Source: Pseudomonadota bacterium
Lineage (GTDB): Bacteria; Pseudomonadota; Gammaproteobacteria; Pseudomonadales; JADFDG01
Length of the DNA: 64,000 nt
Reading direction: 5' to 3'
Assembly (NCBI GenBank): GCA_049324475.1
Contig: JBMOOO010000011.1
Coordinates: 163,557-227,556, forward strand
The translations under genes were made by a program, and so were the position numbers. Shown here piece after piece: positions 20,880 to 62,082 of this stretch (its first letter is position 1; each line of letters begins with the position of its first letter). The notes under the pieces are model-generated. The model had not been told where the DNA came from, did not search any database, and saw only the letters and a program-made list of their open reading frames with translations.

Positions 20880-20985
20880 GTGGAATCCGGATCCTTCCAG
20901 TGAAACGGCAGCCGCTATCGTACCTGCGCCGGCCGGGCGCCGCTGTTGTCGCCGCGTTAAGGATGCGTGCAGCCCCTTCGCACGA

Positions 20986-44262: not shown

Positions 44263-44350
44263 TTCGTCTCGGGGGTGTCCTGCGATCATGGGGGCGATCA
44301 TACTGGCCGACCCCGCCCCCTTTATAGTTAAAAACCGTAAACCGTCCCTC

Positions 44351-46904: not shown

Positions 46905-46905
46905 G

Positions 46906-47637: not shown

Positions 47638-47813
47638 CTGCCTGCGTGACGCATCAGGCCCGCGGCGAGTTACCGCAGAGCGGAATCACGCTCGAAGGAA
47701 CATAGCGCCGACGCGGCGCCTGCTCAAGCCGGCAACCGGCCGGCGGCACGGCCGGCCGGACGGGACGCTGCCGGTTCGTGACCGGTGTCGCAGCCGACGG
47801 CAGAATGCCGGGC

Positions 47814-48305: not shown

Positions 48306-49711
48306 CCGGCGGGGTCGGCGAGGAAGCGTGCCAGCCTCAGGTTCAGCATCAGCGCCGCCACGGCGAGTCCGGCCACCAGGCCGACCCAGAATCCCTGTGG
48401 CCCCAGCGGAGTGATCAGGGGCATGCCGAAGAGGGTGCCGAAGCCGAGCAGCCAGCCGACCGGCAAGCCGATGCACCAGTAGGCAAACAGCGTGATCCAC
48501 ATCGGGCGCCGTGTGTCATGAAAGCCCCGCAGTGCGCCGTTGGCGGTCACCTGCAGCGCATCCGGCAACTGGAAAATGGCCGCATACACCAGCAACGCGG
48601 CAGCCAGTGCACGCACGGCAGCATCTTCGGTGTAGAGCGCCGGTATGGCATGGCGGCCCAGCAACAGCACCAGTGCGTTGAACAGTGCAATGGCGGTGGA
48701 CAGGGCCAGCCCGACCTGCACGGCGCGTCGTGCAGCGGCCTGATCGCCGGCACCGGCCGCCAGCCCGGTGCGCACCGTGAGCGCGAGACCCACCGACAAC
48801 GGCAGCATGAATGTCAGTGAAGCAAAATTGAGCGCGATCTGGTGACCGGCAACCACCTGCTCGCCCAGCCGGGCCAGCAGGATGGCGATGACCGAAAAGA
48901 TGCTGACCTCGAAAAAGATCGCCATGCCGATGGGCAGGCCCAGCGCCAGCATGGCCAGCAATGCGCGCGGATCCGGGCCATGCAGGCGGCCGTCGATGTG
49001 CGTGCCTGGCGGTGTACGGGTCCGGTAGTGCGTGCCGTGTCGTACGTAAAACCACATCAGCACGGCCATCAGCCACATCACGATGGCGGTGGCGACGCCG
49101 CAGCCGGGACCGCCCATGGCCGGCATCCCGAACAGGCCGTGTATGAAGATGTAGTTGAGCGGGATGTTGGCCAGCAGGCCGATCAGGCTGATCACCAGCA
49201 CCGGCTTCGGATGCGACAGTGACTCGCTGTAGCTGCGCATGCCGATGAACAGGGCGACGCCCGGCAGCCCCCATGACAATCCGTTCAGGTACTCCGCTGT
49301 CATGTCGCGCAGGCGCGATGGCACATCCAGGGCATCGAACAGCAGCACGGCATGACGCGCTGCAATGAATCCCAGGATCCCGACGGCCAGTGCCAGCCAC
49401 AAGGCCTGCCAGGCGGTGGGCACGACACGTTCATGCCGGCCGGCGCCGATATGCTGCGACAGGATCGGCGTGGCGGCGATGATCACACCGACCATGAACA
49501 GGAACAGGGGAACCCAGATGCTGGCGCCGATCGCGACTGCCGCCAGATCCGCCGGGCTGACCGCGCCGGCCATGACCGTATCGACAAACCCGTTGGCGGT
49601 CTGCGCGACCTGGCCACCCAGTATCGGAATCACCAGCGACAGCAGCGCACGCAGCTCGCTGCGATGACTGTCCGGATTGACCGGCGGGTCTTGAGCGGGA
49701 GGACAGGTCAC
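48284..49711 (-). CDS. MATE-family multidrug efflux transporter (NorM-like)
   Basis: 475 aa, 12 TM segments. N-terminus LRALLSLVIPILGGQVAQTANGFVDTVMAG. The 3' end overlaps the convergent GGCT gene by 22 nt. Confidence 0.85.
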   Translation of the reverse strand: MTCPPAQDPPVNPDSHRSELRALLSLVIPILGGQVAQTANGFVDTVMAGAVSPADLAAVAIGASIWVPLFLFMVGVIIAATPILSQHIGAGRHERVVPTAWQALWLALAVGILGFIAARHAVLLFDALDVPSRLRDMTAEYLNGLSWGLPGVALFIGMRSYSESLSHPKPVLVISLIGLLANIPLNYIFIHGLFGMPAMGGPGCGVATAIVMWLMAVLMWFYVRHGTHYRTRTPPGTHIDGRLHGPDPRALLAMLALGLPIGMAIFFEVSIFSVIAILLARLGEQVVAGHQIALNFASLTFMLPLSVGLALTVRTGLAAGAGDQAAARRAVQVGLALSTAIALFNALVLLLGRHAIPALYTEDAAVRALAAALLVYAAIFQLPDALQVTANGALRGFHDTRRPMWITLFAYWCIGLPVGWLLGFGTLFGMPLITPLGPQGFWVGLVAGLAVAALMLNLRLARFLADPAGYQRGTD

Positions 49712-49780
49712 GATAGGGTGCGCGCGGCTGCGGGAAAGGGCTGCATTCTATCAGCCGCCACGCAGTGGTCGTTCATCGCC

Positions 49781-50356
49781 ATGCATCCGGAACTTGCCAG
49801 ACTGCTCGACGTGTTCGCTCGCGAATTCGCGGGCAGCCATCGCACGCGCCTGGTGGCGGGAGGCGATGAGCCGCTGTACCGGCCGGCTGCAGATGGCGAT
49901 GGCTGGAACGAAATCGTGTTCCGCCACGACTATGTCCAGAGTGCGCTGCATGAAATTGCGCACTGGTGCGTGGCCGGAGAACAGCGCCGACGCCTGGTCG
50001 ACTACGGGTACTGGTACCACCCGGATGGTCGCACGCGTGCCCAGCAGGAAGTGTTCGAGAAAGTGGAGGCGCGGCCGCAGGCGGTCGAATGGCTGCTGAG
50101 CGCAGCCTGCGGACGGGGTTTCCGGGTCAGCCTCGACAACCTCGATTCCGGTGAGCCGCTGGACGAGGGTTCGCTGTGGCGTGCCGTACACCGTGCCGTG
50201 CAGCACTGTCTTGATCATGGCCTTCCACCGCGTGCGGAACGGCTGGCACGTGCGCTGGCGCATGAATGCGGCAACGTGTGGCCGCTGCCGGCCGACCGGT
50301 TCGTGCTGCCGGCAGAGTACCGTGATGGCGGAGGCGATCAGGCCGGCACACACTGA
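49781..50356 (+). CDS. epmC: Elongation factor P hydroxylase
   Basis: ATG 49781. RTRLVAGGDEPLYRPA...SALHEIAHWCVAGEQRRRLVDYGYWYHPDGR...EARPQAVEWL is collinear with E. coli EpmC (YfcM). Confidence 0.85.
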   Translation: MHPELARLLDVFAREFAGSHRTRLVAGGDEPLYRPAADGDGWNEIVFRHDYVQSALHEIAHWCVAGEQRRRLVDYGYWYHPDGRTRAQQEVFEKVEARPQAVEWLLSAACGRGFRVSLDNLDSGEPLDEGSLWRAVHRAVQHCLDHGLPPRAERLARALAHECGNVWPLPADRFVLPAEYRDGGGDQAGTH

Positions 50357-50422: not shown

Positions 50423-50695
50423 TCATTTCGGGGGAAAGCTGACCGTGTATTTGTCGTCCCACGGCAGGACATCCTTGATCGAACCGAACTTGATGGCCTT
50501 GATGCGTGCAGCCAGCTTCTGTTCGGTTTCGGGATCGGCCAGCTCCGAGGAAACGATTTCAGCCGTTGATACCGAGCCGTCGGGTTCAACGACAAGGCGG
50601 AAGACGACAGCGCCCTTGAGCGCCGGTTTGCTGCGCAGCGCATCCTGCCAGATTGCCTGCAACGCGCCGTTGTTGTGTCCCATGATCGCGCGGAT
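50423..50695 (-). repeat. Paralogous 273-nt segment, copy A (3' end of the lipoprotein gene)
   Basis: It aligns without gaps to 51450..51722, and both start at the stop codon TCA on the plus strand. I counted 44 identities in the first 60 aligned positions. Confidence 0.7.
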
Positions 50696-51319
50696 GCCGT
50701 CCGGGGTTCGCTCCAGTCCGCCCTCGGCGTTTCTGCGCACGCCGGTGATGTCGCTGTCGGCAATGACCAGTGCTTCGGCAGCCCGGGCGGGTGCCGGCGT
50801 TGCCGGCTTGAGCGGAATCAGGTCCTTGGGTGGCGTGAATTCCACCGTGTAGGTGTCGGACCAGGCAGGCACGGCTTCCAGTGCGCCGAAACCGATGGTG
50901 CGCACATAGGCCACGACCTGGCGGGTGAATTCCGCGTCATGGATATCCGACGAGGCAATGTCGGCAGCCTGGACGCTGCCGTCGGGTGCGATGATCAGGC
51001 GCAGTACCACATTGCCTTTCAGCGATGCGTCCTCGGCCAGCCGGCGCTGGTACAGCGTCTGCAGGCCGGGGTTGTAGCGGGCCATGACCAGTTTGACGCC
51101 GCACTCGCTGCGTTTGCGGGTGGGCACTTCCGTGACCGGAACACAGTCGGATTGTGAAACAGGAAGCACCGGTGCGTTGGTGACCACGCGCGCTGCCTCG
51201 GCGCCCGGTTTGCGGTAGATCGGGCCGGAGTAATCCACGCCGATATCGGCGGGTGGCGGGATGCAGCCGGCCAGCAGCGTCAGCATGGCGACAGGCGCGA
51301 TGGTTCGGGTGGTCAGCAT
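50423..51319 (-). CDS. Lipoprotein with two tandem TonB-C-like (AgmX/PglI-type) domains
   Basis: Start ATG 51319 gives the lipobox MLTTRTIAPVAMLTLLAGC|IPP. There are two copies of a ~90-aa module (..LKGNVVLRLIIAPDGSVQAADIASS.. and ..LKGAVVFRLVVEPDGSVSTAEIVSS..LPWDDKYTVSFPPK). Confidence 0.65.
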   Translation of the reverse strand: MLTTRTIAPVAMLTLLAGCIPPPADIGVDYSGPIYRKPGAEAARVVTNAPVLPVSQSDCVPVTEVPTRKRSECGVKLVMARYNPGLQTLYQRRLAEDASLKGNVVLRLIIAPDGSVQAADIASSDIHDAEFTRQVVAYVRTIGFGALEAVPAWSDTYTVEFTPPKDLIPLKPATPAPARAAEALVIADSDITGVRRNAEGGLERTPDGIRAIMGHNNGALQAIWQDALRSKPALKGAVVFRLVVEPDGSVSTAEIVSSELADPETEQKLAARIKAIKFGSIKDVLPWDDKYTVSFPPK

Positions 51320-51389
51320 GGCGGTTTCCGGTGGGAGCGGTATACGCGGGTCGGGCAACGATACCGCAAATTCCCGGCAGAAATAACAA

Positions 51390-51407
51390 GGGGCGCCGAA
51401 GCGCCCC
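51390..51407 (-). terminator. Hairpin after the TonB-like gene
   Basis: GGGGCGC-CGAA-GCGCCCC. On the minus strand it is followed by CTTGTTATTTC. It lies 43 nt downstream of the stop at 51450. Confidence 0.55.
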
Positions 51408-51449
51408 CTGCCTGTTTCACCGGAACATCGTGCCGGCCGGTCACCACGA

Positions 51450-51722
51450 TCAGCTCGGGAAGAAGTTGAGTGTGTACTTGTCATCCCACGGCAAGACACC
51501 TTCGATGGCACCGAAGTTGATGGCCCGGATACGGGTAATCAGCTTCTTCTCGGTTTCCGGGTCACCCAGCTCCGACGACAGGATGTCTGCTGTCGAAACC
51601 GATCCGTCCGGAGCAATCACCAGGCGGATCACGATGGCACCCTTGAGCGTGGGGTTGTTGCGCAGCGCGCGCTGGTAGATGGCCTGGAGTGCACCGTTGT
51701 TGCGGTCCATGATCCGGCGGAT
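51450..51722 (-). repeat. Paralogous 273-nt segment, copy B (3' end of the TonB-like gene)
   Basis: See copy A. It encodes NGALQAIYQRALRNNPTLKGAIVIRLVIAPDGSVSTADILSSELGDPETEKKLITRIRAINFGAIEGVLPWDDKYTLNFFPS, versus NGALQAIWQDALRSKPALKGAVVFRLVVEPDGSVSTAEIVSSELADPETEQKLAARIKAIKFGSIKDVLPWDDKYTVSFPPK in copy A. Confidence 0.7.
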
Positions 51723-52427
51723 TTCTTCCTGCGTGCGCTCCAGTTTGCCACTGGCATTCTTGCGCACGACACCGGTACCGCCTTCGGTGATGGTGGACGT
51801 CACCTTGGTGCCGGCCACGGCAGCCAGCTTGCCGCCGCCCGCCACACCGTAACCGCCGCCGCCACTGGATGCCGCACCCATGGTCACACCGCCGGAGCCC
51901 TTGCCCGCCCGGCTGGTGATCATGTCGCGCGACACACTGCCAGGACCGCCGGGGCCAACCACGCCGGTACCCTTGGTGAGCTGCTGATCACCCATGTCGA
52001 AGGCCGATGCGAGATCCTGCATGGCAGAAATCTCGGCCTCGGCTTCGGCAAAGGCCTTCCTGGCTTTTTCCTTGGCCTTGGTCACCTGGACTTCGGTCGG
52101 TTTCTCCGGCTTCGGTTCATCCGGTTTCGGCTCTTCCGGTTTTTCCTCCTTCACCTCTTCCTTTGGCGGAGGCGGCGGAGGCGGCTCGAGCTTTTTCTGC
52201 ATCACCAGCTTGGCCAGACGTTCCGGCACCTTCTCGGCGGCGGCCCGATCCGGTTTGGGCACCTCGACACTGCTCATCACGTACGACAGTGTGAACGTGA
52301 GCAGCAGTGCCAGCAGTGCCAGCCAGCGGTTGCGCTTGCGATCGCCACCGACGCTGTCCCAGGCGAGATACGAGCCGGGGATGTAGTGATCTTTCGGAGT
52401 GATGCTGTCAAACGGTTTTGCCGTCAT
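51450..52427 (-). CDS. TonB-architecture energy transducer with an AgmX/PglI-type C-terminal domain
   Basis: N-terminal TM segment (WLALLALLLTFTLSYVM), Pro/Glu/Lys linker PPPPPPPKEEVKEEKPEEPKPDEPKPEKP, a Gly-rich spacer, and the C-terminal domain NGALQAIYQRALRNNPTLKGAIVIRLVIAPDGSVSTADILSS...LPWDDKYTLNFFPS. ATGA overlap with the upstream exbD-like gene. Confidence 0.75.
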   Translation of the reverse strand: MTAKPFDSITPKDHYIPGSYLAWDSVGGDRKRNRWLALLALLLTFTLSYVMSSVEVPKPDRAAAEKVPERLAKLVMQKKLEPPPPPPPKEEVKEEKPEEPKPDEPKPEKPTEVQVTKAKEKARKAFAEAEAEISAMQDLASAFDMGDQQLTKGTGVVGPGGPGSVSRDMITSRAGKGSGGVTMGAASSGGGGYGVAGGGKLAAVAGTKVTSTITEGGTGVVRKNASGKLERTQEEIRRIMDRNNGALQAIYQRALRNNPTLKGAIVIRLVIAPDGSVSTADILSSELGDPETEKKLITRIRAINFGAIEGVLPWDDKYTLNFFPS

Positions 52428-52927
52428 GACGCGTCCTCCTTCTTGCGCAGCACGGCGAAGGAGATTTTCGAGTAATCGTTCTCGCTGCAGGTGGCCATGA
52501 TCTTGCGCAGCAGGGCATAGGGGATGCCCTTGTCGCCGATGATCATGACTTCGCGCTCGGGGATACCCTGGTCATTGAGCTTGGGCGGCGTCTTGGAAGC
52601 GCGATACTGCAGTTCCTGGGCAAGACCGGGGATGGTCGCGCTTTTGGAACGGGCAATTTCCGCGATATCCGCCACCTTCACGCCCTGAACAAGGATGTAG
52701 TCCTTGTTGACCATGATTGCCAGCGATTCTCCGGGCATCTGCTCGGAAGTGGAGCGCGGCAACTGCAGGTCTTCGCTGCCCGGGATCTGCGTGACGTTCT
52801 GCTGGTTGACCAGCAGGAAGAACACCAGAACCGTCAGGATGTCGATCAGCGACGTCAGCTGGATGATCGCCGGCTTCATGAACTTGTGCCGGCGTTCCAT
52901 GCGTTTGGCGCGGGCTGACTTCTTCAT
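52424..52927 (-). CDS. ExbD/TolR-family protein (second paralog)
   Basis: 167 aa. Basic N-terminus, TM segment LTSLIDILTVLVFFLLV (the family's conserved TM Asp is in LIDIL), and a periplasmic domain. ATGA overlaps at both ends (52924-52927, 52424-52427). Confidence 0.8.
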   Translation of the reverse strand: MKKSARAKRMERRHKFMKPAIIQLTSLIDILTVLVFFLLVNQQNVTQIPGSEDLQLPRSTSEQMPGESLAIMVNKDYILVQGVKVADIAEIARSKSATIPGLAQELQYRASKTPPKLNDQGIPEREVMIIGDKGIPYALLRKIMATCSENDYSKISFAVLRKKEDAS

Positions 52928-53457
52928 TCCGCACCTCCCGCTGCAGGTGCAGCCGGGGCTGAAGAAGATGCCGGCACGGCATCGCCGATGCTGATGTCGG
53001 GGAACAGGGCGGCCTTGATCTGCTTGCCGTTCACCATCTTCGGCTTGTAGCGCACGGCATCCATCCCGCTGATCAGGACTTCATACGGCGTATCCGGTTC
53101 GAGCATCACGGAGACTTCCGTCACCGAGGGATACTCGTCCTTGAGCTCGATGAGATAGGCCTTCAGGCCCTTGTAATCGAGCACGCCGCCGGGCAGCGCC
53201 GGAAACTCCTTCAGGGGACCGGTCGTCTGGTTGGCGACGAGGATGTGGTCCTTGTAGAAGCTGACTTCCAGCACCAGCGGTGGTTTGTTGTTGTCGGTCG
53301 ACTGGCCGTCCCCGGGTGCAGGCAGATTCACGTCGAGTCGGGTGACTTCGGTGAACACCGCGCTGACCAGCAGGAACGCGAGCAGAACCACCATCAGGTT
53401 GATGAAGGTGGTCATGTCCAGATCGGCCTCCATTTCGCGAGGCTTCTTGGCCCTCAT
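52924..53457 (-). CDS. ExbD/TolR-family protein (first paralog)
   Basis: 177 aa. ADLDMTTFINLMVVLLAFLLV (Asp-containing TM) followed by a periplasmic domain. Confidence 0.8.
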   Translation of the reverse strand: MRAKKPREMEADLDMTTFINLMVVLLAFLLVSAVFTEVTRLDVNLPAPGDGQSTDNNKPPLVLEVSFYKDHILVANQTTGPLKEFPALPGGVLDYKGLKAYLIELKDEYPSVTEVSVMLEPDTPYEVLISGMDAVRYKPKMVNGKQIKAALFPDISIGDAVPASSSAPAAPAAGGAE

Positions 53458-53487
53458 AACGACTCCTGGCGTTCGGTCTGAGGGGGC

Positions 53488-54150
53488 TTACTCGGTGCGG
53501 CCGCTGATCTGGCGGATGACGTTCAGGCATTTGACCGACGCAGCCTCGAAGCTGGCCACGGTCTCGCCGGCCTTGGATTGCAGGAAGGAGAACAGCACCA
53601 GCATCGGGATCGCGGTGACGAGACCGAAGGCCGTACAGTTCATGGCTTCGCCCACGGCGGCAGACAGCATGTTGGCTTTTTCGGCCGGGTCGGCGCTGGC
53701 GACGGCGGTAAACGCGTGGATCAGACCGATGATGGTGCCGAGCAGGCCGAGCAGGGTGGCTACGTTGGCCAGCGTCGACAGGTAGTGGGTGCGCTTCTCG
53801 ATGCGCGGCAGCACTTCCATCAGGGCTTCTTCCATGGCCAGCTCGATGTCTTCGGTGCGGCGCGCGGTGGCGGCACGGGTCAGGCCGGAAGCGATGATGT
53901 TGCCCATGAAGCTGTTGGAGTTCTTGGCGACTTCCAGGGCCTGCTTGAAGTTGCCCTTGGTCATGACCGGATAGAGCTCGTCCCAGACCTTGCTGTTGCG
54001 GCTGGCCATGTTGGCCAGGAAGAAATAACGCTCAAGGCCGATGAAGATACCGGCGATCAGGGTCAGCAGGATGGGGTACATCCAGAAGCCGCCCACCTGG
54101 AAAAACTCGATGGTGCTCATGATCAGGCCGGGTTCGTTCGCGGTTGCCAT
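53488..54150 (-). CDS. MotA/TolQ/ExbB-family proton channel subunit
   Basis: 220 aa, 3 TM segments. Conserved C-terminal pair LSTLANVATLLGLLGTIIGLIHAF and GEAMNCTAFGLVTAIPMLVLFSFL. Confidence 0.85.
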   Translation of the reverse strand: MATANEPGLIMSTIEFFQVGGFWMYPILLTLIAGIFIGLERYFFLANMASRNSKVWDELYPVMTKGNFKQALEVAKNSNSFMGNIIASGLTRAATARRTEDIELAMEEALMEVLPRIEKRTHYLSTLANVATLLGLLGTIIGLIHAFTAVASADPAEKANMLSAAVGEAMNCTAFGLVTAIPMLVLFSFLQSKAGETVASFEAASVKCLNVIRQISGRTE

Positions 54151-54207
54151 TGCTGTTCTCCTGTGTAATTCGATGTGGATCTGTGATGGATGCCTGGATC
54201 AGGGCGG

Positions 54208-54567
54208 TTACTGGGTCTGTTCCTGCAGACTGCGGAAGTACTGCACCTCCCGGCGCAGTACATCACGGTCCAGCGGTTGCAGGACCTGATTGAGAATCGA
54301 CGTGGTCGGCGATTTCTTCTCGAGTTTCACTTCCTTGTCTTTCCACGGTACGACGTTCAGTACCGTGGGGGCCTCCTGCGAGCCGACGACGTTGGTCACC
54401 AGCTCGCTTTCGGGTTTGGCATCGGCCGGCTGCTTTTTTGCCGCCGCGTTGGCGGCATTGGCGAAATTGCCGGCAGCGGCAGCCGGCTTCGCCGGGTCGG
54501 CAGCGAAAACCGGTGAGACGGAGAGAAGGGCGGCAACCAGTGTTGCCATGACGAGACGATGCTTCAT
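54208..54567 (-). CDS. Small secreted protein of unknown function
   Basis: 119 aa. Signal peptide MKHRLVMATLVAALLSVSPVFA|AD, an Ala/Lys/Pro-rich stretch, then VLNVVPWKDKEVKLEKK. The start overlaps the upstream stop (ATGA at 54564-54567). Confidence 0.55.
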   Translation of the reverse strand: MKHRLVMATLVAALLSVSPVFAADPAKPAAAAGNFANAANAAAKKQPADAKPESELVTNVVGSQEAPTVLNVVPWKDKEVKLEKKSPTTSILNQVLQPLDRDVLRREVQYFRSLQEQTQ

Positions 54568-55352
54568 GACGACTGACCTGTTGCAGGAGTGGCCGCAGGT
54601 GCGGCGGCCGGCGCGGATTGTTCGGCCGGAGCGGCGGGCGGAGTGGCCGGCGCCGGTGCGGCAATGCCCAGGCGGTTGCGCAGGTCGCCGATCCAGTTGC
54701 CTACCGCCTGGTCCGGTTTGCGTTGCAGGGCCTGATAGCGCTCATAGTGTTTCAGCGCGAGGTTGAGGTCCTGCAGGTACAAGTCAGCCAGCACGCCAAG
54801 ATTGAAGTGGGCCTTGGCGTAGTTGCCGTCGATGGCCAGCGCCTTCTCGTAGGCGGCGCGCGCTTCCTTGAATTTGCCCTGCTCGCGCAGGACGATGCCG
54901 CGCATGTTCCAGGCGAACGGGTTTTTCGGGTTCACCTTGAGTGTCTGGTCGATGCTGTCCAGGGCGTCTTCCCATTTTTCCTGGCGTATGTAGATCAGCG
55001 CCTGGTTGACCAGCGGGCCGGACAACACCGGGTGCTGGGCGGAAATGGCCTGGAATCCGACCAGGGCGTCGTTCAGCTTGCCGGCTTTCATGGCCTGCAC
55101 GGCGGCGAAGTATTCGCCGATCGCCTGCTGGGCTGCGGCCTGCGCCTGGCTCGATGCCGTGACGGTGGTCTGGTGTACCGAATCGCTGGCAGCAACGGCG
55201 GGTGCCGTCGGTTGCTGACGTACCGAGCGGACGACATTGACGTTGTCGACTTCCGGCTTGGGCTTCGGTGTCGATGAGCAGGCCGCCAGCGTGGCTGCCA
55301 GCAACAGCCACGCGGCACGCCAGGGACGGAAATCAGTAGATGACATCGACAT
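54564..55352 (-). CDS. TPR-repeat lipoprotein
   Basis: Start ATG 55352 (or 55346). Lipobox WLLLAATLAAC|SS. At least four TPR units (for example PKNPFAWNMRGIVLREQGKFKEARAAYEKALAIDGNYAKAHFNLGVLADLY). Confidence 0.7.
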   Translation of the reverse strand: MSMSSTDFRPWRAAWLLLAATLAACSSTPKPKPEVDNVNVVRSVRQQPTAPAVAASDSVHQTTVTASSQAQAAAQQAIGEYFAAVQAMKAGKLNDALVGFQAISAQHPVLSGPLVNQALIYIRQEKWEDALDSIDQTLKVNPKNPFAWNMRGIVLREQGKFKEARAAYEKALAIDGNYAKAHFNLGVLADLYLQDLNLALKHYERYQALQRKPDQAVGNWIGDLRNRLGIAAPAPATPPAAPAEQSAPAAAPAATPATGQSS

Positions 55353-58300
55353 ATTCTTCCGTCTGTTCTTTCTTGGCGAAGCGGCCCGGTTGCAGGACGG
55401 ACAGGGCCTTGAAGCTCTTCTTGACCCAGTCATCGTAGATGTCCTGTTTCACCAGGTCGGTGTTCTGCGTGTACAGGGTGATGGCCTGGTCTTCGAACGG
55501 CAGCGCCTGCTCTTCCAGCAGCAGGTCGTACTGCTCCAGTTCCAGTTCGTCGAGACCGCGCGGGCGCTCGGAAGACATCAGGTCGGCAGCCAGGATCCGG
55601 TACACCTCGGCGGTGCGGAACTGGGCCGCAGATGCGAATTCAGCCACGCCGAGTTTGGCGGTTGTCGCATAGGAATCGAGCGCGGCCTGCATCAGCCGGC
55701 GTTTTTCGGCCAGCGAGGTCTTCAGCGGCGCTTTCAGCTTGTACTCGGTGAAACGCTGGAAGACCGGCTCGGCCACGGTGAACGATGCAAAGGCGCCGAG
55801 ATAGTTGGTGCGCGGTGTGGCTGCCGGGCCGGCATTCTTCGCGCCGGAGGCCAGCGCTGCCAGCAGGGTGTCGCGGGAGCGGAGGTCGCCACGTTTCTCG
55901 GCGATCTTCAGCAGCCGGTACTGCGCTTCCATGCGGGCTTCCAGCGGTTGCGGGTTCTCCGCGATGTACTTGTTGTAGAGCCGGATCACACCGTCCTCGT
56001 TGCCGGTCTTCTCCGTGAACTCGGCGGCCTGCCACAAGGCATTGCGGGCAAGCTCCGGGTCGGTCTTGAGATTGGTGTCGTGGATGGTTTCCATCTCGCG
56101 GGCGGCGCCGGCGAAGTTGCCGGTCTTCTCGTAGGCAACGGCCAGCTTGTCCGGGATGGTGTCGCCCAGGGTGTTTTTCGGGTAGCGGACGCGGAACTGT
56201 TCCAGCACCGGAATGGCGGCGTTCCACTGTTCCTTTTTCAGGTAAATGGTGGCCGCGTCGAACTCCGCGTTGGCCCGGATCCCGGCATCGGGAACCACCG
56301 TGCCCACGCGCATGTATTCCTTCGCACCTTCCAGTTCCTTGCCTTCGGCGATCAGTTTCTCGCCCTGTTTGTAGATGCTGGCGGCCAGGCGCTCGTTGTA
56401 GGTCTTGCGATCAGCCGGTGTCAGGTCGTTGAAGGCCAGCACCTTGGTGAAGGCAAACTCGGCGACCTTGTGGCGGCCGAGGTCGAATTCGCCGTTGGCA
56501 ATGGTCTGCCAGCCGTACTTCTGCAGGGCAGGCGGTGGCGGTGGATTGAGTGATACCAGCAGGCCGGCAGTGCTGATGGCACCGGCCACATCCTTCTTGG
56601 CGAGCTGGTCCTCGACGATGTTCTGCAGCACGCCAGGTGCCTTTTCATGCCCCTGGAAGGTGCGCGCGAACTTCAGGCCGGCATCGATCTTGCGGGTCAG
56701 CAACTGCTTGTATTCGTTGTCCCGCTTCGGATCGCCTTTCATCTCGTCACCGTAGGCCTGGTAGGCCACCAGGCCGAAGTAGGCTGCTTCGGCAGCCTTG
56801 TCGTAGCCCGGATATTCGTACGCGGTACGTTCGAATTCGCGGACCGACTTCACGAACTCGCGACCGGAGAACAGGGCCTCGGCATACAGATGGTTGATGG
56901 TGGCGGCACCCGGATCCTTCGGATCGGTTTCCAGCAGCTGTTTGTACCAGCCGGCGGCCACCAGGAATTCGGCCGTGTCGTTACCCTTCTGGGCGGTGGC
57001 GTGATGGTGCTTGGCCAGATCCAGCAGGTGCGACTTCAGCAGCGGCAGGTACTCGGTGCGCTGCTTCTCGTGCGAGCCCCAGTATTTGCTGTTGATGCCA
57101 TAGGCCTTGACGAAACGTTCCTTGGCCGGCAGTACCTGGGTCGGGAAGCCACCGTCCTGCAGGGCCTTGATGGCGCTGGAGGAGAATTCCGGTGCCAGAT
57201 CGCTGTCGGGATACAGCAGCACGAAGGTTTCGAAAGTGTCGGCGGCATCCACGAAGCGTTCCTGCTTGACGTAGACCTCGCCAAGGGCGCGGTAGATCTT
57301 GTGCTCGTAGCCGCGCCGGCCGTTCTTCCTGAACCAGGCCGTCACCGACTTGGCGCCGTCCAGATTGTTGAACGACATGGAAGCCACGCGGAACGTATCG
57401 TCGAGCAGACGCTGGTTGCGGTCCGCTTCCTTGCCTTCGGCCTGTACCTTGTCCAGCAGATCGATCAGCGCGAAGAAATCGACCAGTGCTTTTTCGTATT
57501 CGGAAACCTTGTAGTAGCCCCAGCCACGCTTGTAGATCGACTGTTCGTAGAAGGTGGTGGCACTGCCGGCCCGGATGACTTCGCTGTAGGCGCCGATCGA
57601 GAGATCGTATTCACCCTCGGAGAAATAGCTCTCACCCAGGCGGAACTGCGCTTCCAGATAGAACGTGCTGTTGGGGTACTGCCTGCCCAGCTCCTTGAGG
57701 GTGGCGACAGACTCTTCATGCTTGCCGGCAATGTCGTAGGCCTTGGCCAGCAGGTAGAAAGCTTCGGCTTTTTCGGCAGGGTCCTGACTGTTCTTGATGA
57801 CGGTCTGGTACAGCAGGATGGCCGTCTCGTAGTTGGCGGCGAGATCGCTGCCTTCCAGCTCCGGCACGATGCCGCCGGCCAGGTCCAGCATGCGGTAGCG
57901 CTCTTCCTGGGTCTTCGCGTCCTGTGCGCCCTGCATGAAGCTCTTGAACAGCATGGCGTCGATTTCGCGGTCGAGTTTGACCTCTTCCGCTTCCGACAGC
58001 TGGGCGGGGACGACCGGTGCTTCCTCGAGGGAAACGCCTTCGCCTTCCTTCTCGGTCGAGGCGGCCATCGCAAGGTCGGCCATCCGGCGCAGCGACTCAA
58101 CACGCTTTTCCGGATCGTTGAACAGTTGCACTGCCTGCTTGTAGTTCACCAGGGCGCCTTCGATCGACGCTTCGTCGATCGAACCCTCCGTGACTTCGAT
58201 CTCCACGTTTTCCAGATCGGCCAGCGTCTGCGATGCGTAGCGGCTTTCCTTGGCCTGCGGGGCAGCGGCCGGTGCCGGTTCGGCCTTGCGTGAAGTCTTC

Positions 58301-58407
58301 CCGGAGACTGTTTTCTCGCTTGCCGGTTGCGACGCGCAGCCGGCGGCAATCATGGCCACCAGTGCGATGCGGACGAAGCGACTGCCGGGGGGCGCCGAAA
58401 ACATCAC
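55333..58407 (-). CDS. Large (about 1020 aa) TPR-repeat lipoprotein
   Basis: GTG 58407 / ATG 58404. Lipobox-like RIALVAMIAAGC|AS. TPR-like repeats run throughout (EAFYLLAKAYDIAGKHEESVATLKEL, YLEAQFRLGESYFSEGEYDLSIGAY, ...). The start overlaps the upstream stop (TGATG). Confidence 0.7.
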   Translation of the reverse strand: MMFSAPPGSRFVRIALVAMIAAGCASQPASEKTVSGKTSRKAEPAPAAAPQAKESRYASQTLADLENVEIEVTEGSIDEASIEGALVNYKQAVQLFNDPEKRVESLRRMADLAMAASTEKEGEGVSLEEAPVVPAQLSEAEEVKLDREIDAMLFKSFMQGAQDAKTQEERYRMLDLAGGIVPELEGSDLAANYETAILLYQTVIKNSQDPAEKAEAFYLLAKAYDIAGKHEESVATLKELGRQYPNSTFYLEAQFRLGESYFSEGEYDLSIGAYSEVIRAGSATTFYEQSIYKRGWGYYKVSEYEKALVDFFALIDLLDKVQAEGKEADRNQRLLDDTFRVASMSFNNLDGAKSVTAWFRKNGRRGYEHKIYRALGEVYVKQERFVDAADTFETFVLLYPDSDLAPEFSSSAIKALQDGGFPTQVLPAKERFVKAYGINSKYWGSHEKQRTEYLPLLKSHLLDLAKHHHATAQKGNDTAEFLVAAGWYKQLLETDPKDPGAATINHLYAEALFSGREFVKSVREFERTAYEYPGYDKAAEAAYFGLVAYQAYGDEMKGDPKRDNEYKQLLTRKIDAGLKFARTFQGHEKAPGVLQNIVEDQLAKKDVAGAISTAGLLVSLNPPPPPALQKYGWQTIANGEFDLGRHKVAEFAFTKVLAFNDLTPADRKTYNERLAASIYKQGEKLIAEGKELEGAKEYMRVGTVVPDAGIRANAEFDAATIYLKKEQWNAAIPVLEQFRVRYPKNTLGDTIPDKLAVAYEKTGNFAGAAREMETIHDTNLKTDPELARNALWQAAEFTEKTGNEDGVIRLYNKYIAENPQPLEARMEAQYRLLKIAEKRGDLRSRDTLLAALASGAKNAGPAATPRTNYLGAFASFTVAEPVFQRFTEYKLKAPLKTSLAEKRRLMQAALDSYATTAKLGVAEFASAAQFRTAEVYRILAADLMSSERPRGLDELELEQYDLLLEEQALPFEDQAITLYTQNTDLVKQDIYDDWVKKSFKALSVLQPGRFAKKEQTEEYVDVIY

Positions 58408-60338
58408 TGGCGTTTCCTCTTCTCGATGGCGTCACTGACCGATGCATCCTGCAGGCGGGCAATGGACAGGTGTGTTTCTGCCAGCTGTGCGCCGATGTTG
58501 CGGCGGTTTTCCTGCAGAACGACCAGTGCCTGGTTCTGCAGTGCCAGTGTCTGTTTCTGCAGGCGCGTGATGACTTCGTCCTTCATGGCCTGCAGGCGCT
58601 GGGCCTGGGCGGTCAGCTGGCGGTCGTATTCGGGGCCGGTGCGGAAGGCAATCTCGTCGCGCTGGCGCTGCAGGGCCTCGACATGCAGTTCCGCCATGTC
58701 GAGATCCGACTTCAGGATCTCGATGTCCTTGATGGCCTGCTGCTGCTGGGCCGTGGCGCTGACGGCGATGTCCCAGATAATCAGGCCCTTGACGCGGCGC
58801 AGACGCTCGCGCAATACCGGGCTTGCACCCAGTTGCGCCTCGACGGCGCGGGCACGGTCCAGCTGGTTGAGCTGTTCCAGGGTTGCGGTCTGCTCGAGAT
58901 CGCCTTTTCGGATGGCGGTTTCGATGCGGGCCTGCAGCGGCGGAATGCGGGCACGCAGGGCCTGTATGTCACGGGTCCGGCGGGCAATGGTGTCCTCGAT
59001 CTTCGGACGCAGGGCCAGCAGACGGCCACGGTGTTCGCCGAGCAGTGACTGGTAGATCGGGATCTGGTCACGCCAGTAGTCGATCAGCTTCTCGGTGCGT
59101 TTCAGCTCCAGGTACAGCTGGTAGTCCTCGGCGAACACGTTCGAGGCAAACAGCGAGTAGAGGTACGGCGCTTCCGGGATGTTGGCCGGCGTGTAGTTGG
59201 TGACCGGTGCCAGCGGGTCGATGGAAACGGCAGCGTCCTTGGCGGTTTCCGGGCTGAGTGAGTCCAGCCAGTCGCTTTCACGCACGCGCAGGATGGTGCG
59301 CTCAACTTTCTTGAGCTCGTTGCGCAGGGTGTCGGCGGCGTAGCGGTAGCCGAACAGTGCCTGGGGCAGGGCGTTCAGTTCTTCATAGGCGCGCGGCGCC
59401 AGCATCAACGCTTCCTGCACCGTGGTGTCGGACGTGTTGCGCTGCAGCAGTTCCAGCCACAGGGGCAGGGCCTTCTTGTAATCGGCCCGCTGGAAGTTCG
59501 CGTAACCGAGGCCGAGCATGGCCTGGTTGGTGAAGGGGCCGTCCATGCGGATGGTGAGCAGCGAATCGCGCGCCAGATCGTTGTTGCCCTTCTGCAGCCA
59601 GGTGAAACCCATGGCGAGCGCAGCGCGGTCCTTGAGTGCGTTGGTCTCCTCGTCACCGGGCGGCAGGTCACGTACACGCTTCAGCAGCGGGAAGCCACGC
59701 TCGGTCTCGCCGGAACGGATGAAGGCGACACCGGCGTTGTACAGCGCATAGGCCCCGATGACATCGTCGGCCTTGACCGTGGCCAGCATGTCGGCGGCTT
59801 TCTGGTACTCACCGCGGCCGATGTAGATGTTGCCCAGCATGACCAGCCGCTCTTTTTCGATGGCGGGCGTGATGTTGGCGATCCGGTTTTCCAGGATCCG
59901 GGCGGCTTCGTCGTATTTGCCCTGCTTGTACTGGACCTCGGCGGTGCGGAACCAGGTTTCGTTGCGGGTCTTGGCCAGGATGTCCCGCTTCATCAGACGC
60001 GAGAAGGTGATCTCCGCGCTGTTGAACAGGCCGAAGTTGGTGTACAGGTTGCCGAGGACCACATCGGAAAAATCGTCGCGTTCGGAGAACACGCCCTGCT
60101 GGCGGGCCATCAGCAGGTTGGTGATGGCCGGCAGGTTGCGGTTGTTGTAGAAGTCGAACATCACCTCGCCGAACAGGATGCTGGCGGGGTCGGCCGGTTC
60201 GACATAGTCGTCCGGTATGAAGCTCTTTTTGGGTGGTGCGGCAGGCGCGGCGAAAGCGGTGCTGCAGACCAGCGCAGCCACGGCTGCCGCCAGCCCCGTA
60301 CGCATCAGCAGGGGAAGGCTCCGGCGGGAATTCAACAT
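58404..60338 (-). CDS. Secreted TPR plus long coiled-coil protein
   Basis: 644 aa. Signal peptide MLNSRRSLPLLMRTGLAAAVAALVCSTAFA|AP. The N-terminal half is TPR-like (WFRTAEVQYKQGKYDEAARILE, LVMLGNIYIGRGEYQKAADML). The C-terminal half has heptad-rich helices (IQALRARIPPLQARIETAIRKGDLEQTATLEQLNQLDRARAVEAQL...). Confidence 0.6.
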   Translation of the reverse strand: MLNSRRSLPLLMRTGLAAAVAALVCSTAFAAPAAPPKKSFIPDDYVEPADPASILFGEVMFDFYNNRNLPAITNLLMARQQGVFSERDDFSDVVLGNLYTNFGLFNSAEITFSRLMKRDILAKTRNETWFRTAEVQYKQGKYDEAARILENRIANITPAIEKERLVMLGNIYIGRGEYQKAADMLATVKADDVIGAYALYNAGVAFIRSGETERGFPLLKRVRDLPPGDEETNALKDRAALAMGFTWLQKGNNDLARDSLLTIRMDGPFTNQAMLGLGYANFQRADYKKALPLWLELLQRNTSDTTVQEALMLAPRAYEELNALPQALFGYRYAADTLRNELKKVERTILRVRESDWLDSLSPETAKDAAVSIDPLAPVTNYTPANIPEAPYLYSLFASNVFAEDYQLYLELKRTEKLIDYWRDQIPIYQSLLGEHRGRLLALRPKIEDTIARRTRDIQALRARIPPLQARIETAIRKGDLEQTATLEQLNQLDRARAVEAQLGASPVLRERLRRVKGLIIWDIAVSATAQQQQAIKDIEILKSDLDMAELHVEALQRQRDEIAFRTGPEYDRQLTAQAQRLQAMKDEVITRLQKQTLALQNQALVVLQENRRNIGAQLAETHLSIARLQDASVSDAIEKRKRQ

Positions 60339-60375
60339 GCTCGGCAGGCTCTGACCGGTGACGGGGAGCGGCGGC

Positions 60376-60891
60376 TTACTCGCTCCATTCCTTGAACTCG
60401 AACTTGTGCTGACGCGTTTCCACGTCGTCCACGACCTTGAGCTCGATCATCTTGCGGCCGGCGCCCTTGACGAACTTGTAGGCGGTGCTGCGCTGGTAAT
60501 CCTTGCCCTGCGGATCGTAGCCGGTGATGGTCGCGCGCAGGGTGTGCTCACCGCTGGTGACGTTGCCGGTGTACAACCGGCTGATGCCGCCCTTGGTCAG
60601 GGCCTGGAATTCCTGGTCGGTGTAGAAGTGATAGCCGACGTTCTTGTTGTCGAGCACGAGGTTGATGTCGACCAGACGGATCGGCGTACCCACATCGATA
60701 GACAGGAACATGGCAACCTGTGTACTCGGATACAGCAGTTGCTGCTCGAGCGAGGTCAGTTCCTTGTTGACGTCGAGGACGCTCTGCTTGAGCGCCTGCA
60801 GGTCGCGGCTGGCAGCGTCCGCGGCGTGGGTGCCGGCGGAAACGAAAGCCAGCAGCAACGCCACAACGAGAGTACGGGCAGGGTGAGCCAT
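60376..60891 (-). CDS. Secreted 171-aa protein (short coiled coil plus beta-rich domain), first gene of the cluster
   Basis: Start ATG 60891 gives the signal peptide MAHPARTLVVALLLAFVSAGTHA|AD, then DLQALKQSVLDVNKELTSLEQQLLY and a beta-rich domain. The longer 271-aa ORF version is rejected because it has no signal peptide and its extension has odd composition. Confidence 0.55.
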   Translation of the reverse strand: MAHPARTLVVALLLAFVSAGTHAADAASRDLQALKQSVLDVNKELTSLEQQLLYPSTQVAMFLSIDVGTPIRLVDINLVLDNKNVGYHFYTDQEFQALTKGGISRLYTGNVTSGEHTLRATITGYDPQGKDYQRSTAYKFVKGAGRKMIELKVVDDVETRQHKFEFKEWSE

Positions 60892-61146: not shown

Positions 61147-62082
61147 ATGACGGTGCCGGACGGGTATCCGGCAGGCCGGAGCGGAGATCATCCCCTGCTG
61201 CTGGTGGACGCTTCGTCCTGTCTGTTCCGTGCCTGGTTCGGTGTTCCGGATGTCTTTTTCGATCGTCGGGGCAGACCGGTCAATGCCGTGGTCGGTTTCT
61301 CACGGACCCTGGCCCGGCTGCTGGCGGAAGCCCGCCCCGGAGCGGTGGCCGTAGCCTTCGACGAAGCGCTTTTCAGTGGATTCCGCCACCGCCTGGATCC
61401 GCTCTACAAGGCCAACCGTGCCCTGCCCGACAAGGATCTGGCGTACCAGATGAAGGCCTGCCGGGAGCTGGTCGAGAGCCTGGGGCTGGTGGCGGTGGCC
61501 AGCCGCGAGTTCGAGGCGGACGACCTGCTGGCCACCTTCGCCGCCCGGGGGCGGAGGGCCGGCCGGCCGGTCCTGGTGGTCAGCGAGGACAAGGACCTTG
61601 CCCAGATCCTGGCCGGTCCGGCGGACCGGCTCTGGCAGTTTGCCCGCAACCGCCTGCTGGATCGCGAGGCCGCCGGCCGCTGGCTGGGCATCGACCCGCT
61701 GCGGTTGCCGGAGTTGCAGGCGCTCACAGGCGATGCCGGCGACAACATCCCGGGCATTCCGGGGTTCGGGCCGGTGTCGGCCCGGGCCGTGCTGGCCTCC
61801 TGCACCCATATAAAGGAAGTGCTGGCGGATCCGGGGCCGGTCGCCGGCCTGCCTGTCAGGGGGGCGGCCCGGTTGGCGGCGGCACTGGCGGAGGGCCGGC
61901 AACGGGCGGCCCTGAACCTTCAGCTGGCCACGCTCTCCAGCCGGGCCAGTCCCGTGCCGGGCCTGCCGTCACTGCGTTTTCGGCCGCCATCCGGCGATAC
62001 CGTCTCTGCTACCCTGCGCGCCCTGGGCCTGCCGGCGGGCAGTGCCCGTGCCTGGGCCGATGTCACCGCACCGGAGTCCTGA
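61147..62082 (+). CDS. 5'-3' exonuclease / flap endonuclease (Xni/ExoIX-like, PIN plus H3TH)
   Basis: LLLVDASSCLFRAWFG..., AVAFDE...FRHRLDPLYKANR, EFEADDLLAT, VSEDKDLAQIL and LTGDAGDNIPGIPGFGPVSA (H3TH). Confidence 0.8.
   Translation: MTVPDGYPAGRSGDHPLLLVDASSCLFRAWFGVPDVFFDRRGRPVNAVVGFSRTLARLLAEARPGAVAVAFDEALFSGFRHRLDPLYKANRALPDKDLAYQMKACRELVESLGLVAVASREFEADDLLATFAARGRRAGRPVLVVSEDKDLAQILAGPADRLWQFARNRLLDREAAGRWLGIDPLRLPELQALTGDAGDNIPGIPGFGPVSARAVLASCTHIKEVLADPGPVAGLPVRGAARLAAALAEGRQRAALNLQLATLSSRASPVPGLPSLRFRPPSGDTVSATLRALGLPAGSARAWADVTAPES

Follow-up and report, generated by a model that had tools for sequence, protein, structure and literature searches.

A ten-gene envelope cluster of a gammaproteobacterium as a probable member of the Agl/Glt-type core complex

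What kind of envelope machine is encoded by ten consecutive minus-strand genes that combine one TolQ-like subunit with two TolR-like subunits, TonB-like proteins and several tetratricopeptide repeat (TPR) proteins? The genes (here P1–P10) lie at positions 50423-60891 of the window, i.e. the whole 64,000-nucleotide stretch of gammaproteobacterial DNA that was analysed. An earlier note on this DNA had likened them to the core of the Agl/Glt gliding machinery of Myxococcus xanthus. Domains, gene order and gene sizes all match published core clusters and support that reading, to which we assign a probability of roughly 0.8: the locus would be a member of the Agl/Glt-type ‘core complex’, a proton-motive-force (PMF)-driven, envelope-spanning machine. 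It does not qualify as a canonical TonB, Tol-Pal or gliding system.

Gene content and the published core

All ten open reading frames were recovered at the coordinates originally reported, as were the overlap motifs (TGATG at 58406-58402; ATGA at 54567-54564, 52927-52924 and 52427-52424), and two metagenome contigs, whose genes were called independently, encode the same proteins. Pfam and NCBIfam profiles matched the domain content that had been claimed (one TolQ-like protein, two TolR-like proteins and TPR proteins), with MotA_ExbB in P6, ExbD in P7 and P8, and TPR families in P2, P3 and P4; lipoboxes are present in P3, P4 and P10.

The earlier note had cited a conserved core outside Myxococcales, and the text of the source bears this out (Luciano et al. 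2011; PMC3169522). There, the ‘core complex’ comprises aglR, aglQ, aglS, gltC, gltD, gltE, gltG and one gene without a Myxococcus homologue; it is encoded at a single locus in several Gammaproteobacteria, one betaproteobacterium, Geobacter and Fibrobacter, is described as being of ‘unknown function’, and is regarded as ancestral to the Myxococcus gliding motor. Carriers in Table S3 of that paper include Marinobacter, Cellvibrio, Shewanella, Saccharophagus, Hahella, Teredinibacter and Thioalkalivibrio, and two or three core copies per genome are reported for Marinobacter, Saccharophagus, Teredinibacter and Hahella. The gene order in Table S3 (GltC-GltD-GltE-extra gene-AglR-AglQ-AglS-GltG) matches P2 to P9, with near-identical sizes. 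Published loci (Marinobacter aquaeolei Maqu_1595-1602 and Maqu_1807-1814, Cellvibrio japonicus CJA_3313-3319, and Shewanella frigidimarina Sfri_1223-1230) share with the window a GltC-like protein of ~550-690 aa, a GltD-like protein of ~930-1020 aa, a GltE-like protein of ~160-260 aa, an unnamed small gene, an AglR-like protein of ~220 aa, two TolR-like proteins of ~165-185 aa and a GltG-like protein of ~320-335 aa. For Sfri_1223-1230, the listed sizes are 332, 177, 188, 217, a gap, 263, 1016 and 692 aa. Loci from Cellvibrio fontiphilus and Marinobacter carry collinear orthologues of the window genes, with sizes that agree with those published for C. japonicus and M. aquaeolei. The cluster is the published core, of a kind already known, and not a discovery. 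Relative to that core, the window has an extra tenth gene, P10; a P1-like gene is not listed in Table S3, where only homologues of M. xanthus genes appear.

The three TPR proteins follow the published pattern. P2 (58404-60338, minus strand; 644 aa, periplasmic, GltC-like) matches TPR_16 and other TPR families and has a helical C-terminal half; its orthologues in related loci are 22-37% identical over >90% of their length, and its position and size fit the genes assigned in Table S3 to MXAN_2541/GltC (550-692 aa). P3 (55333-58404, minus strand) is a GltD-like outer-membrane TPR lipoprotein or ‘pillar’ of 1023 aa from ATG (1024 aa from a GTG at 58407), the lipobox Cys24 of which is invariant in 30 homologues. 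In the AlphaFold2 (AF2) model of P3, residues 190-1010 form an all-alpha solenoid and the N-terminus is disordered; only generic TPR scaffolds in the PDB resemble it. The size of P3 fits the 933-1016-aa genes assigned to MXAN_4870/GltD in Table S3. The terms GltC-like and GltD-like rest on the assignment by Luciano et al. for orthologous clusters. P4 (54564-55352, minus strand) is a 262-aa, GltE-like TPR lipoprotein that matches TPR_1, TPR_2 and TPR_16 in Pfam and, weakly, gliding_GltE in NCBIfam (NF033758; E 2.2e-5, 23.6 bits, cut-off 225), and fits the 162-263-aa genes assigned to MXAN_4869/GltE in Table S3.

Two small secreted proteins accompany them. P5 (54208-54567, minus strand; 119 aa) matches no Pfam or NCBIfam family; its N-terminal half is of low complexity and its C-terminus carries the conserved motif ELPKVLYIVPWK ... 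LLDE.L.PVDR.VF.R. It is kept in 58 related loci, always between the GltE-like and AglR-like genes, and corresponds to the locus-tag gaps in Table S3 (Maqu_1599, Sfri_1227 and CJA_3316), i.e. to the ‘additional gene’ of the published core. The suggestion that it equals GltF found no support in homology, the likeness being positional only; gltF is confined to Myxococcales and Bdellovibrionales according to Luciano et al. P1 (60376-60891, minus strand; 171 aa, with signal peptide) had been described as a coiled-coil/beta protein, and its AF2 model (pLDDT 83 overall, >90 within the sandwich) indeed has one long N-terminal helix (residues 24-52) followed by an eight-strand beta-sandwich (57-171). 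P1 matches no Pfam or NCBIfam family, its 110 homologues are all annotated as ‘hypothetical’, and a Foldseek search of the model against the PDB gave nothing at E<1e-3. In most related loci, the gene immediately upstream of the GltC-like one is an orthologue of P1, the conserved first gene of the unit.

Among the 47 related loci with enough flanking sequence to be counted for synteny, 38 have P1 to P9 collinear, and because this order recurs so often the arrangement is far beyond chance. Not all ten genes form the conserved unit: it comprises the nine genes P1-P9, the 171-aa P1 included, and excludes P10. A relative occurs in at least 590 GTDB species, and collinear nine-gene loci occur in Moraxellaceae, Alcanivorax, Marinobacter, Cellvibrio, Kangiellaceae, Woeseiaceae, Steroidobacteraceae, Thioalkalivibrio, Thiodiazotropha and metagenome-assembled genomes of Desulfobacterales.

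Motor subunits and TonB-like proteins

P6 (53488-54150, minus strand) is a 220-aa, AglR-like proton-channel subunit of the MotA/TolQ/ExbB family (PF01618, 97 bits) in which the channel threonines T139 and T173 are invariant across the family. P7 (52924-53457, minus strand; 177 aa) and P8 (52424-52927, minus strand; 167 aa) belong to the ExbD/TolR family (PF02472) and are AglQ-like and AglS-like by position, respectively. The best NCBIfam matches of the three are TolQ and TolR, yet P6 scores 62.7 against the TolQ equivalog cut-off of 221, and P7 and P8 score 25-26 against 127 for TolR. Scores against ExbB (46.5 vs 206 and 35 vs 135) and ExbD (<=22 bits vs 123-216) are also below the cut-offs, and P6 is 27-29% identical to both TolQ and ExbB of Escherichia coli, over the C-terminal 100 aa only. 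P6-P8 are outside the TolQR and ExbBD equivalogs.

The TolR-like pair is asymmetric. When aligned with E. coli TolR and ExbD, the transmembrane (TM) helix of P7 has Asn20 in place of the proton-carrying aspartate (TolR D23, ExbD D25), and Asn occupies this site in 77 of 79 orthologues and in 140 of 147 representatives of 50%-identity clusters. P8, which has a long basic cytoplasmic tail, keeps the TM aspartate (D29), as do all 75 orthologues. In a homodimeric TolR or ExbD, the Asn of P7 would be inactivating. Only one paralogue of the window thus carries the TM aspartate, whereas both AglQ and AglS of M. xanthus do according to a review citing Sun 2011; in the literature searched we found no mention of an Asn-for-Asp replacement in the AglQ-like paralogue.

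P9 (51450-52427, minus strand; 325 aa) is a GltG-like transducer with the TonB architecture that had been claimed for it: a conserved LPW motif in its short cytoplasmic N-terminus, a single TM helix, a linker rich in Pro, Lys and Glu, and a C-terminal domain (CTD) of the TonB-CTD-like AgmX/PglI type that passes NF033768 (60.8 bits, cut-off 40). It also matches positions 414-632 of the gliding_GltG HMM (NF033760) at E 2e-12, with 46 bits against a cut-off of 650. No Pfam TonB_C match was found in P9 and no histidine in the TM helix of its orthologues; a 35-aa cytoplasmic stub stands in place of the two FHA domains of M. xanthus GltG. TonB and TolA bind their motors through the TM histidine; as neither this residue nor the FHA domains are present in P9, the coupling of P9 to P6 is assumed rather than evident.

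P10 (50423-51319, minus strand; 298 aa) is, as the earlier note had proposed, a lipoprotein with two further copies of this domain (NF033768 matched twice, 95 bits, cut-off 40). Domain 1 passes Pfam TonB_C (31.8 bits) and TIGR01352 and is 45% identical to the CTD of P9; for domain 2, the identity is 69%. A one-domain orthologue of 193-199 aa exists in sister lineages, and in all 80 other loci nothing but the CTD of the P9 orthologue matches P10. P10 is a lineage-specific addition.

Alternative readings

An additional canonical TonB-ExbB-ExbD system, with ExbD1/ExbD2 as in Xanthomonas and receptors encoded elsewhere in the genome, would share the motor family, the Pro-rich linker and the TonB-CTD-like fold, and the TonB_C and TIGR01352 matches of P10 fit it. 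The ExbB and ExbD scores, the AgmX/PglI subfamily of the P9 CTD and the lack of a TonB_C match and of a TM histidine in P9 speak against it, as does the constant linkage to three TPR proteins, P1 and P5, which is foreign to Ton systems; the neighbours and large window ORFs tested include no TonB-dependent receptor, as had been claimed, and none is a conserved neighbour in 80 loci. We consider this highly improbable. A functional gliding machine is less credible still. The window shares with the Agl-Glt gliding and Agl-Nfs spore-coat systems of M. xanthus one TolQ-like and two differing TolR-like subunits, a TM/Pro-rich/TonB-CTD-like transducer with the AgmX/PglI domain, GltD- and GltE-like TPR lipoproteins and a GltC-like TPR protein, but no Group A genes (gltA, B, F, H, I, J, K), the GltA/B/H barrels among them, or CglB-type adhesin lie in or near the cluster, the AglZ/MglA link is missing, P9 lacks the FHA domains that dock GltG to GltI, and the core is reported to be insufficient for motility, gliding being undocumented in most carriers (Luciano et al. 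2011; PMC3169522).

Two other readings concern what the machine does. A second, divergent Tol-Pal-like system, acting in outer-membrane (OM) tethering, lipid homeostasis or the coordination of envelope constriction with P3 in an expanded CpoB-like role and P9 as its TolA, is rather unlikely, although it draws on the TolQ and TolR best matches of P6-P8, a 5:2-type PMF motor family, a TM-anchored extended transducer, action on OM lipoproteins instead of a barrel, BamD-like and CpoB/YbgF-like TPR units in P3 (TIGR02795; 71.5 bits, cut-off 90.1), OM-side parts that are all lipoproteins or periplasmic proteins with no barrel, and a published comparison of AglR5QS-GltG to TolQ5R2-TolA (Cambillau & Mignot 2025). 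Against it stand the low TolQ/TolR scores, the heterodimeric TolR pair with one Asp, a transducer without the SHLS histidine and a much larger TPR content. In agreement with the earlier note, the window has no TolA, TolB or Pal; YbgC is likewise absent from it, and TolB, Pal and YbgC are not conserved neighbours. The two or three core copies per genome suit cargo-specific modules better than a housekeeping function. These paralogous copies fit a basal device for transport or secretion, driven by the PMF, by which an OM-associated protein or polymer encoded elsewhere is moved or exposed as cargo, the ancestral role proposed for Agl-Glt/Nfs by Mignot and colleagues. That proposal is purely speculative in the literature, and no cargo, barrel or secretin gene was found conserved with the nine genes in the related loci compared or near the cluster in the window; we regard it as a tentative possibility. 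Small OMP_b-brl genes and a DUF3570 barrel adjoin the unit in some related loci, which favours such a device. Against the core reading itself, scores lie far below the NCBIfam equivalog cut-offs for GltG, GltE and GltJ.

A model of the machine

Homology with TolQRA, with ExbBD-TonB and with the AglR5QS-GltG-GltD assembly modelled for M. xanthus suggests a mechanism. The proton channel in the inner membrane may consist of five P6 copies that enclose an Asn-type subunit (P7) and an Asp-type subunit (P8) as a heterodimer. Protons passing the single Asp would drive conformational work or rotation, to be handed on to the TM helix of P9. The P9 linker would cross the peptidoglycan and, with the CTD, grip P3, on which P4 and P2 would dock; P5 and P1 may serve as conserved accessory or adaptor subunits, and P10, confined to this lineage, would supply additional CTDs at the outer membrane. 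In M. xanthus, AglR and GltG interact by two-hybrid assay (PMC3169522), and AlphaFold models place an AglQ/AglS heterodimer inside AglR5, wrap GltG around GltD, bind GltE to the GltD C-terminus and connect GltC to the outer membrane (Cambillau & Mignot 2025). Stoichiometry, protein contacts, PMF dependence and output are all inferred here.

Neither an OM beta-barrel gene nor a cargo gene accompanies the unit across related loci, so the locus does not reveal its output; whatever cargo or process the machine acts on, the conserved unit does not encode it. The function is still called unknown (Wartel 2013; Islam 2020 preprint; Cambillau & Mignot 2025) and, consistent with the earlier note, we found no paper to 2026 assigning one to a gammaproteobacterial core. 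We lean towards movement or secretion of OM-associated cargo, or envelope maintenance, over nutrient import. To the published core, the present analysis adds a nine-gene unit that includes P1, the lineage-specific P10, and the Asn/Asp asymmetry of the TolR-like pair.

Gene content and match to the published core complex

Ten minus-strand open reading frames (ORFs) run from 60891 down to 50423 and are numbered here P1 to P10 in transcription order. The stop/start overlaps described in the earlier note lie where it placed them (TGATG at 58406–58402; ATGA at 54567–54564, 52927–52924, and 52427–52424), and two short metagenome contigs encoding an identical AglR-like protein yield the same products by independent gene calls. 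Also as described, a single MotA/TolQ/ExbB-type gene (P6; PF01618, MotA_ExbB, 97 bits) accompanies two different ExbD/TolR-type genes (P7 and P8; PF02472 in both), and the AgmX/PglI-type C-terminal domain (CTD) is present once in P9 (60.8 bits) and twice in P10 (95 bits) by the NCBIfam model NF033768 (cut-off 40). Many TPR families match P2, P3, and P4 in Pfam; P1, P5, and P9 have no Pfam match. Signal peptides precede P1, P2, and P5, and lipoboxes without aspartate at position +2 are found in P3, P4, and P10, with Cys24 of P3 invariant among 30 homologues. A promoter and terminator scan of 49.5–62 kb gave counts not above those of shuffled sequence.

Luciano et al. 2011 (PMC3169522) sorted the 14 gliding genes of Myxococcus xanthus into Group A, confined to Myxococcales and Bdellovibrionales, and Group B (gltC, gltD, gltE, gltG, aglR, aglQ, and aglS). 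The Group B genes and one further gene without a Myxococcus homologue share a single locus in one betaproteobacterium, several gammaproteobacteria, Geobacter, and Fibrobacter, and this locus was named the ‘core complex’. That paper, with its homologue table (Table S3), agrees with the earlier note's account of a conserved core outside Myxococcales. In Table S3, Sfri_1223 to 1230 have sizes of 332 (GltG), 177 (AglS), 188 (AglQ), 217 (AglR), a gap, 263 (GltE), 1016 (GltD), and 692 (GltC), and Maqu_1807 to 1814 have sizes of 324, 166, 170, 235, a gap, 189, 952, and 648 (PMC3169522). The corresponding sizes in the window, from P9 to P2, are 325, 167, 177, 220, [119], 262, 1023, and 644. Upstream of the motor genes stand three TPR genes as in the core, GltC-like (~600 aa), GltD-like (~950–1000 aa), and GltE-like (~200–260 aa), followed by a small gene. 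Because order and sizes agree with Table S3, we identify the cluster with the published core, and the earlier reading of it as resembling the Agl/Glt core is correct.

By tblastn of its proteins, the window cluster is collinear with loci of Cellvibrio fontiphilus (L040) and Marinobacter (L050 and L082), whose gene sizes agree with those published for C. japonicus and M. aquaeolei. Since Luciano et al. placed congeners of these bacteria in the clade of AglRQS and GltCDEG, we infer membership of the window cluster transitively, through their tables. NCBIfam apparently contains no model for AglR, GltC, or GltD that the window proteins match at E values up to 10. The locus is a further member of a kind whose occurrence in gammaproteobacteria has already been published. 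What this analysis adds is the nine-gene definition of the unit, an Asn/Asp asymmetry in its motor, leads from its neighbourhoods, and one lineage-specific extra gene.

P5 is the ‘additional gene’ of the published core, as it sits at the locus-tag gap in Table S3. It carries a conserved motif, ELPKVLYIVPWK...PVDR, after a low-complexity stretch. The earlier note lists a small GltF among the Glt core proteins; the equivalence of P5 to it is one of position only, and homology to GltF was rejected for lack of sequence evidence and because Luciano et al. assign gltF to Group A.

A conserved nine-gene unit and a lineage-specific tenth gene

One genome was searched for each GTDB species with an AglR-like alignment as the query, and at least 590 species have a relative of the AglR-like protein. 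The best 80 of these loci, all of the gamma type, were kept for comparison and belong to Moraxellaceae, Alcanivorax, Marinobacter, Cellvibrio, Kangiellaceae, Allohahella, Woeseiaceae, Steroidobacteraceae, Thioalkalivibrio, Thiogranum, Thiodiazotropha, Acidiferrobacterales, Thiotrichaceae, and metagenome-assembled genomes (MAGs) of Desulfobacterales. By tblastn with the ten window proteins, P1 to P9 are collinear in 38 of the 47 loci with enough flank, and the exceptions are mostly loci in which a short or divergent P5, P2, or P1 went undetected or in which the cluster is rearranged or duplicated. All-against-all clustering of ORFs from the related loci returned exactly nine widely shared families, with nothing else above 24 loci. 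From these families and the collinearity of P1 to P9, we define the conserved unit as nine genes, P1 included. The earlier proposal of a ten-gene unit thus holds for P1 to P9 but not for P10, and the synteny rules out chance clustering. P1 has no row in Table S3; that table lists only homologues of M. xanthus genes, so the absence is no sign that the gene was overlooked. One MAG (L021) carries two complete units side by side, and in four Desulfobacterales MAGs (L046, L049, L072, and L085) the GltG-like gene is immediately followed by an additional AglR-like gene.

P9, the GltG-like gene after the motor genes, has the architecture attributed to it earlier: a transmembrane (TM) helix, a proline-rich linker, and the AgmX/PglI CTD. 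The linker and CTD align with the equivalog model for M. xanthus GltG (HMM positions 414–632, E 2e-12), at a score far under its cut-off. P9 orthologues share an N-terminal LPW motif, and basic residues precede their TM helix. P10 (50423–51319) is a recent, lineage-specific addition. Its orthologue in two sister MAGs (AglR identity 85–89%) is a one-domain lipoprotein of 193–199 aa (L088:12749–13330 and L089:8033–8632); outside this lineage, its only match among the related loci by tblastn is the CTD of the P9 orthologue, and a PDB sequence search with it gave no match. C59 and C73 are conserved in its first domain. The second CTD of the window protein is 69% identical to the CTD of adjacent P9, which indicates a recent duplication of the domain inside the locus.

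The window comes from a MAG of an uncultured member of Pseudomonadota. Housekeeping genes flank the cluster: a 5′-3′ exonuclease gene and pdxB lie upstream, and epmC and genes for a MATE pump, an MFS transporter, and an AraC regulator follow downstream. Comparison of 61147–63207 and 45397–50356 with four related loci (L003, L004, L088, and L089) revealed a context common to Moraxellaceae MAGs and partly to Alcanivorax, with pdxB upstream and the MATE pump, tusA, an AmpG-like MFS gene, and an AraC regulator downstream; in the window lineage, the GltG-like gene is separated from the MATE gene by epmC and P10. Such a shared context points to vertical inheritance of the locus within this part of Gammaproteobacteria. 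Further ORFs in the window are unrelated to the cluster: a 764-aa protein with a neutral/alkaline ceramidase N-terminal domain (18822–21116, minus strand), an 873-aa protein ending in DUF2804 (12610–15231, minus strand), and an 858-aa DUF349 protein (24896–27472, minus strand). Two putative ORFs of 243 aa (46906–47637, minus strand) and 334 aa (43396–44400, minus strand) match no Pfam family at E ≤1e-5.

Motor subunits and comparison with known envelope systems

The AglR-like P6 is equally far from E. coli TolQ and ExbB (27–29% identity over the C-terminal 100 residues). A PDB sequence search with it returned TolQ and ExbB only (E ~1e-9), and its channel threonines, T139 and T173, are invariant. 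The two TolR-like proteins, AglQ- and AglS-like by position, are old paralogues that share only 22% identity. Aligned with E. coli TolR and ExbD, P8 keeps the canonical TM aspartate (LIDIL), as do all 75 of 75 orthologues, and P7 has asparagine at that position (FINLM), as do 77 of 79 orthologues and 140 of 147 cluster representatives (50% identity, from a set of 1.8 billion proteins). According to a review that cites Sun et al. 2011, M. xanthus AglQ and AglS both have the conserved Asp; if that is so, an axle formed by a heterodimer with a single Asp would be a feature of the gamma-type core. We found in the literature neither a mention of such an axle nor a description of a 5:2 motor with one Asp subunit and one conserved Asn subunit.

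The main alternative to the published suggestions of a transport or secretion role is that the cluster serves a Tol-Pal-like envelope role. A tblastn search with E. coli proteins gave a weak CpoB-TPR match inside P3 as the sole Tol-Pal match in the window, with no TolA, TolB, Pal, or YbgC, and this absence bears out the earlier description. Against the Tol models, P6 scores 62.7 bits versus the TolQ cut-off of 221 (TIGR02796), and P7 and P8 score 25.1 and 26.2 bits versus the TolR cut-off of 127 (TIGR02801). A canonical TonB function, in which the motor would energize a TonB-dependent receptor, is unlikely. The TonB_C model (PF03544) is passed only by domain 1 of P10 (31.8 bits) and is not matched by P9; P6 reaches 46.5 bits versus the ExbB cut-off of 206 (TIGR02797), and P7 and P8 at most 22 bits versus the ExbD cut-offs of 153 and 123 (TIGR02803/02804). 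TonB and TolA carry an SHLS motif with a conserved TM histidine (PMC12204202), whereas neither P9 nor its orthologues have a histidine in the TM helix. No TonB-dependent receptor was found among the window ORFs tested, again in line with the earlier note.

Gliding, suggested by the Group B composition itself, is likewise unlikely. The Group A parts of the M. xanthus machine (the GltA/B/H barrels, GltK, GltF, GltI, and GltJ) and the CglB adhesin are absent from the ten proteins and their neighbours. Scores fall below the cut-offs for GltJ (20.6 bits versus 450), GltG (46.4 for P9 and 60.8 for P10 versus 650), and GltE (23.6 for P4 versus 225), and GltG has FHA domains, whereas P9 orthologues lack them. 

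The roles suggested in the literature are a basal transport machine and protein secretion. The conserved nine-gene unit contains no barrel, secretin, adhesin, or enzyme, so the output of the machine is not encoded within the unit; that several species have several copies per genome favours a cargo-specific use.

Proposed working scheme, candidate partners, and significance

In their AlphaFold model of M. xanthus Agl-Glt, Cambillau and Mignot 2025 place five AglR subunits around an AglQ/AglS heterodimer. The TM helix of GltG is bound to AglR and its periplasmic segment is wrapped around GltD; GltE occupies the C-terminus of GltD, and GltC joins the outer membrane (OM) module. By analogy with this model and by homology to TolQRA and ExbBD-TonB, the most likely working scheme is one in which a P6(5):P7:P8 motor would convert proton flow into movement of P9, which in turn would pull or turn an OM-anchored P3-P4-P2 scaffold. 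We infer all of the protein contacts, the stoichiometry, and the proton-motive force (PMF) dependence. P3 is predicted to form an alpha-solenoid of ~800 residues with CpoB/BamD-like TPR units behind a disordered N-terminal stretch of 190 residues, and designed TPRs were its matches in a PDB sequence search. P1 is confidently predicted as one long helix and an eight-strand beta-sandwich, a fold with no significant PDB neighbour. As a hypothesis only, P5 may supply a TonB-box-like strand to the CTD.

Candidate partners come from the neighbourhoods of related loci. Directly upstream of the P1 orthologue and on the same strand, 24 loci, about half of those with upstream flank, have a gene for a TlpA-like thiol:disulfide oxidoreductase; ApbE is encoded in 22 loci, its gene lying either upstream or immediately behind the GltG-like gene, and 10 loci encode DUF3570 (examples are L018:574–3513, L033:449–3501, L030:33–2635, L061:1764–3639, and L005:2152–2670 and 12909–13880). 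Together, these genes make up the ApbE/DUF3570/thioredoxin-like/DUF4266 module, which Meheust et al. 2021 (PMC8238504) described as associated with flavinylation and which is absent from the vicinity of the window cluster. In Marinobacter, some Woeseiaceae, and other loci (only five to six in all), two small OM beta-barrel genes lie ahead of the unit, upstream of the P1 orthologue (L050:1–1493; L075:105–860; L082; L078; L026). One encodes an SH3 and OMP_b-brl protein (~251 aa) and the other an OMP_b-brl protein (~215 aa); neither has a homologue in the window. By analogy, these barrels could be OM partners comparable to GltA and GltB.

The most far-reaching reading, to which we assign a probability of roughly 0.3, is that the nine-gene unit may be a third class of Tol/Ton-like envelope machine, autonomous and with an obligate heterodimer axle of one subunit bearing a proton-carrying Asp (P8) and one bearing a conserved Asn (P7). 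Rather than gating receptors or mobilising Pal, it would exert force on an OM lipoprotein TPR scaffold and so move a putative cargo, which in many lineages could have a link with the neighbouring ApbE/DUF3570/thioredoxin-like redox module or with the small OM barrels.

Fifteen years after its description, we found no function assigned to the core complex in the literature, and searches for its published genes by locus tag, or for gliding protein names in gammaproteobacterial genera, returned no relevant work. The window does not open the question or make it newly testable, as cultured carriers have been known since 2011. It sharpens the question through the nine-gene unit, the cultured carriers in which deletions are feasible (Marinobacter, Cellvibrio, Alcanivorax, and Aliikangiella), and the Asn/Asp asymmetry of P7 and P8, which is directly testable by N-to-D and D-to-N swaps. 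The Myxococcus gliding and spore-coat machines presumably descend from the core complex, which is carried by at least several hundred gammaproteobacterial species and by some Desulfobacterales. Its function, once known, would establish a third functional class beside Ton and Tol-Pal for transducing PMF into force at the outer membrane, and would explain the origin of gliding.
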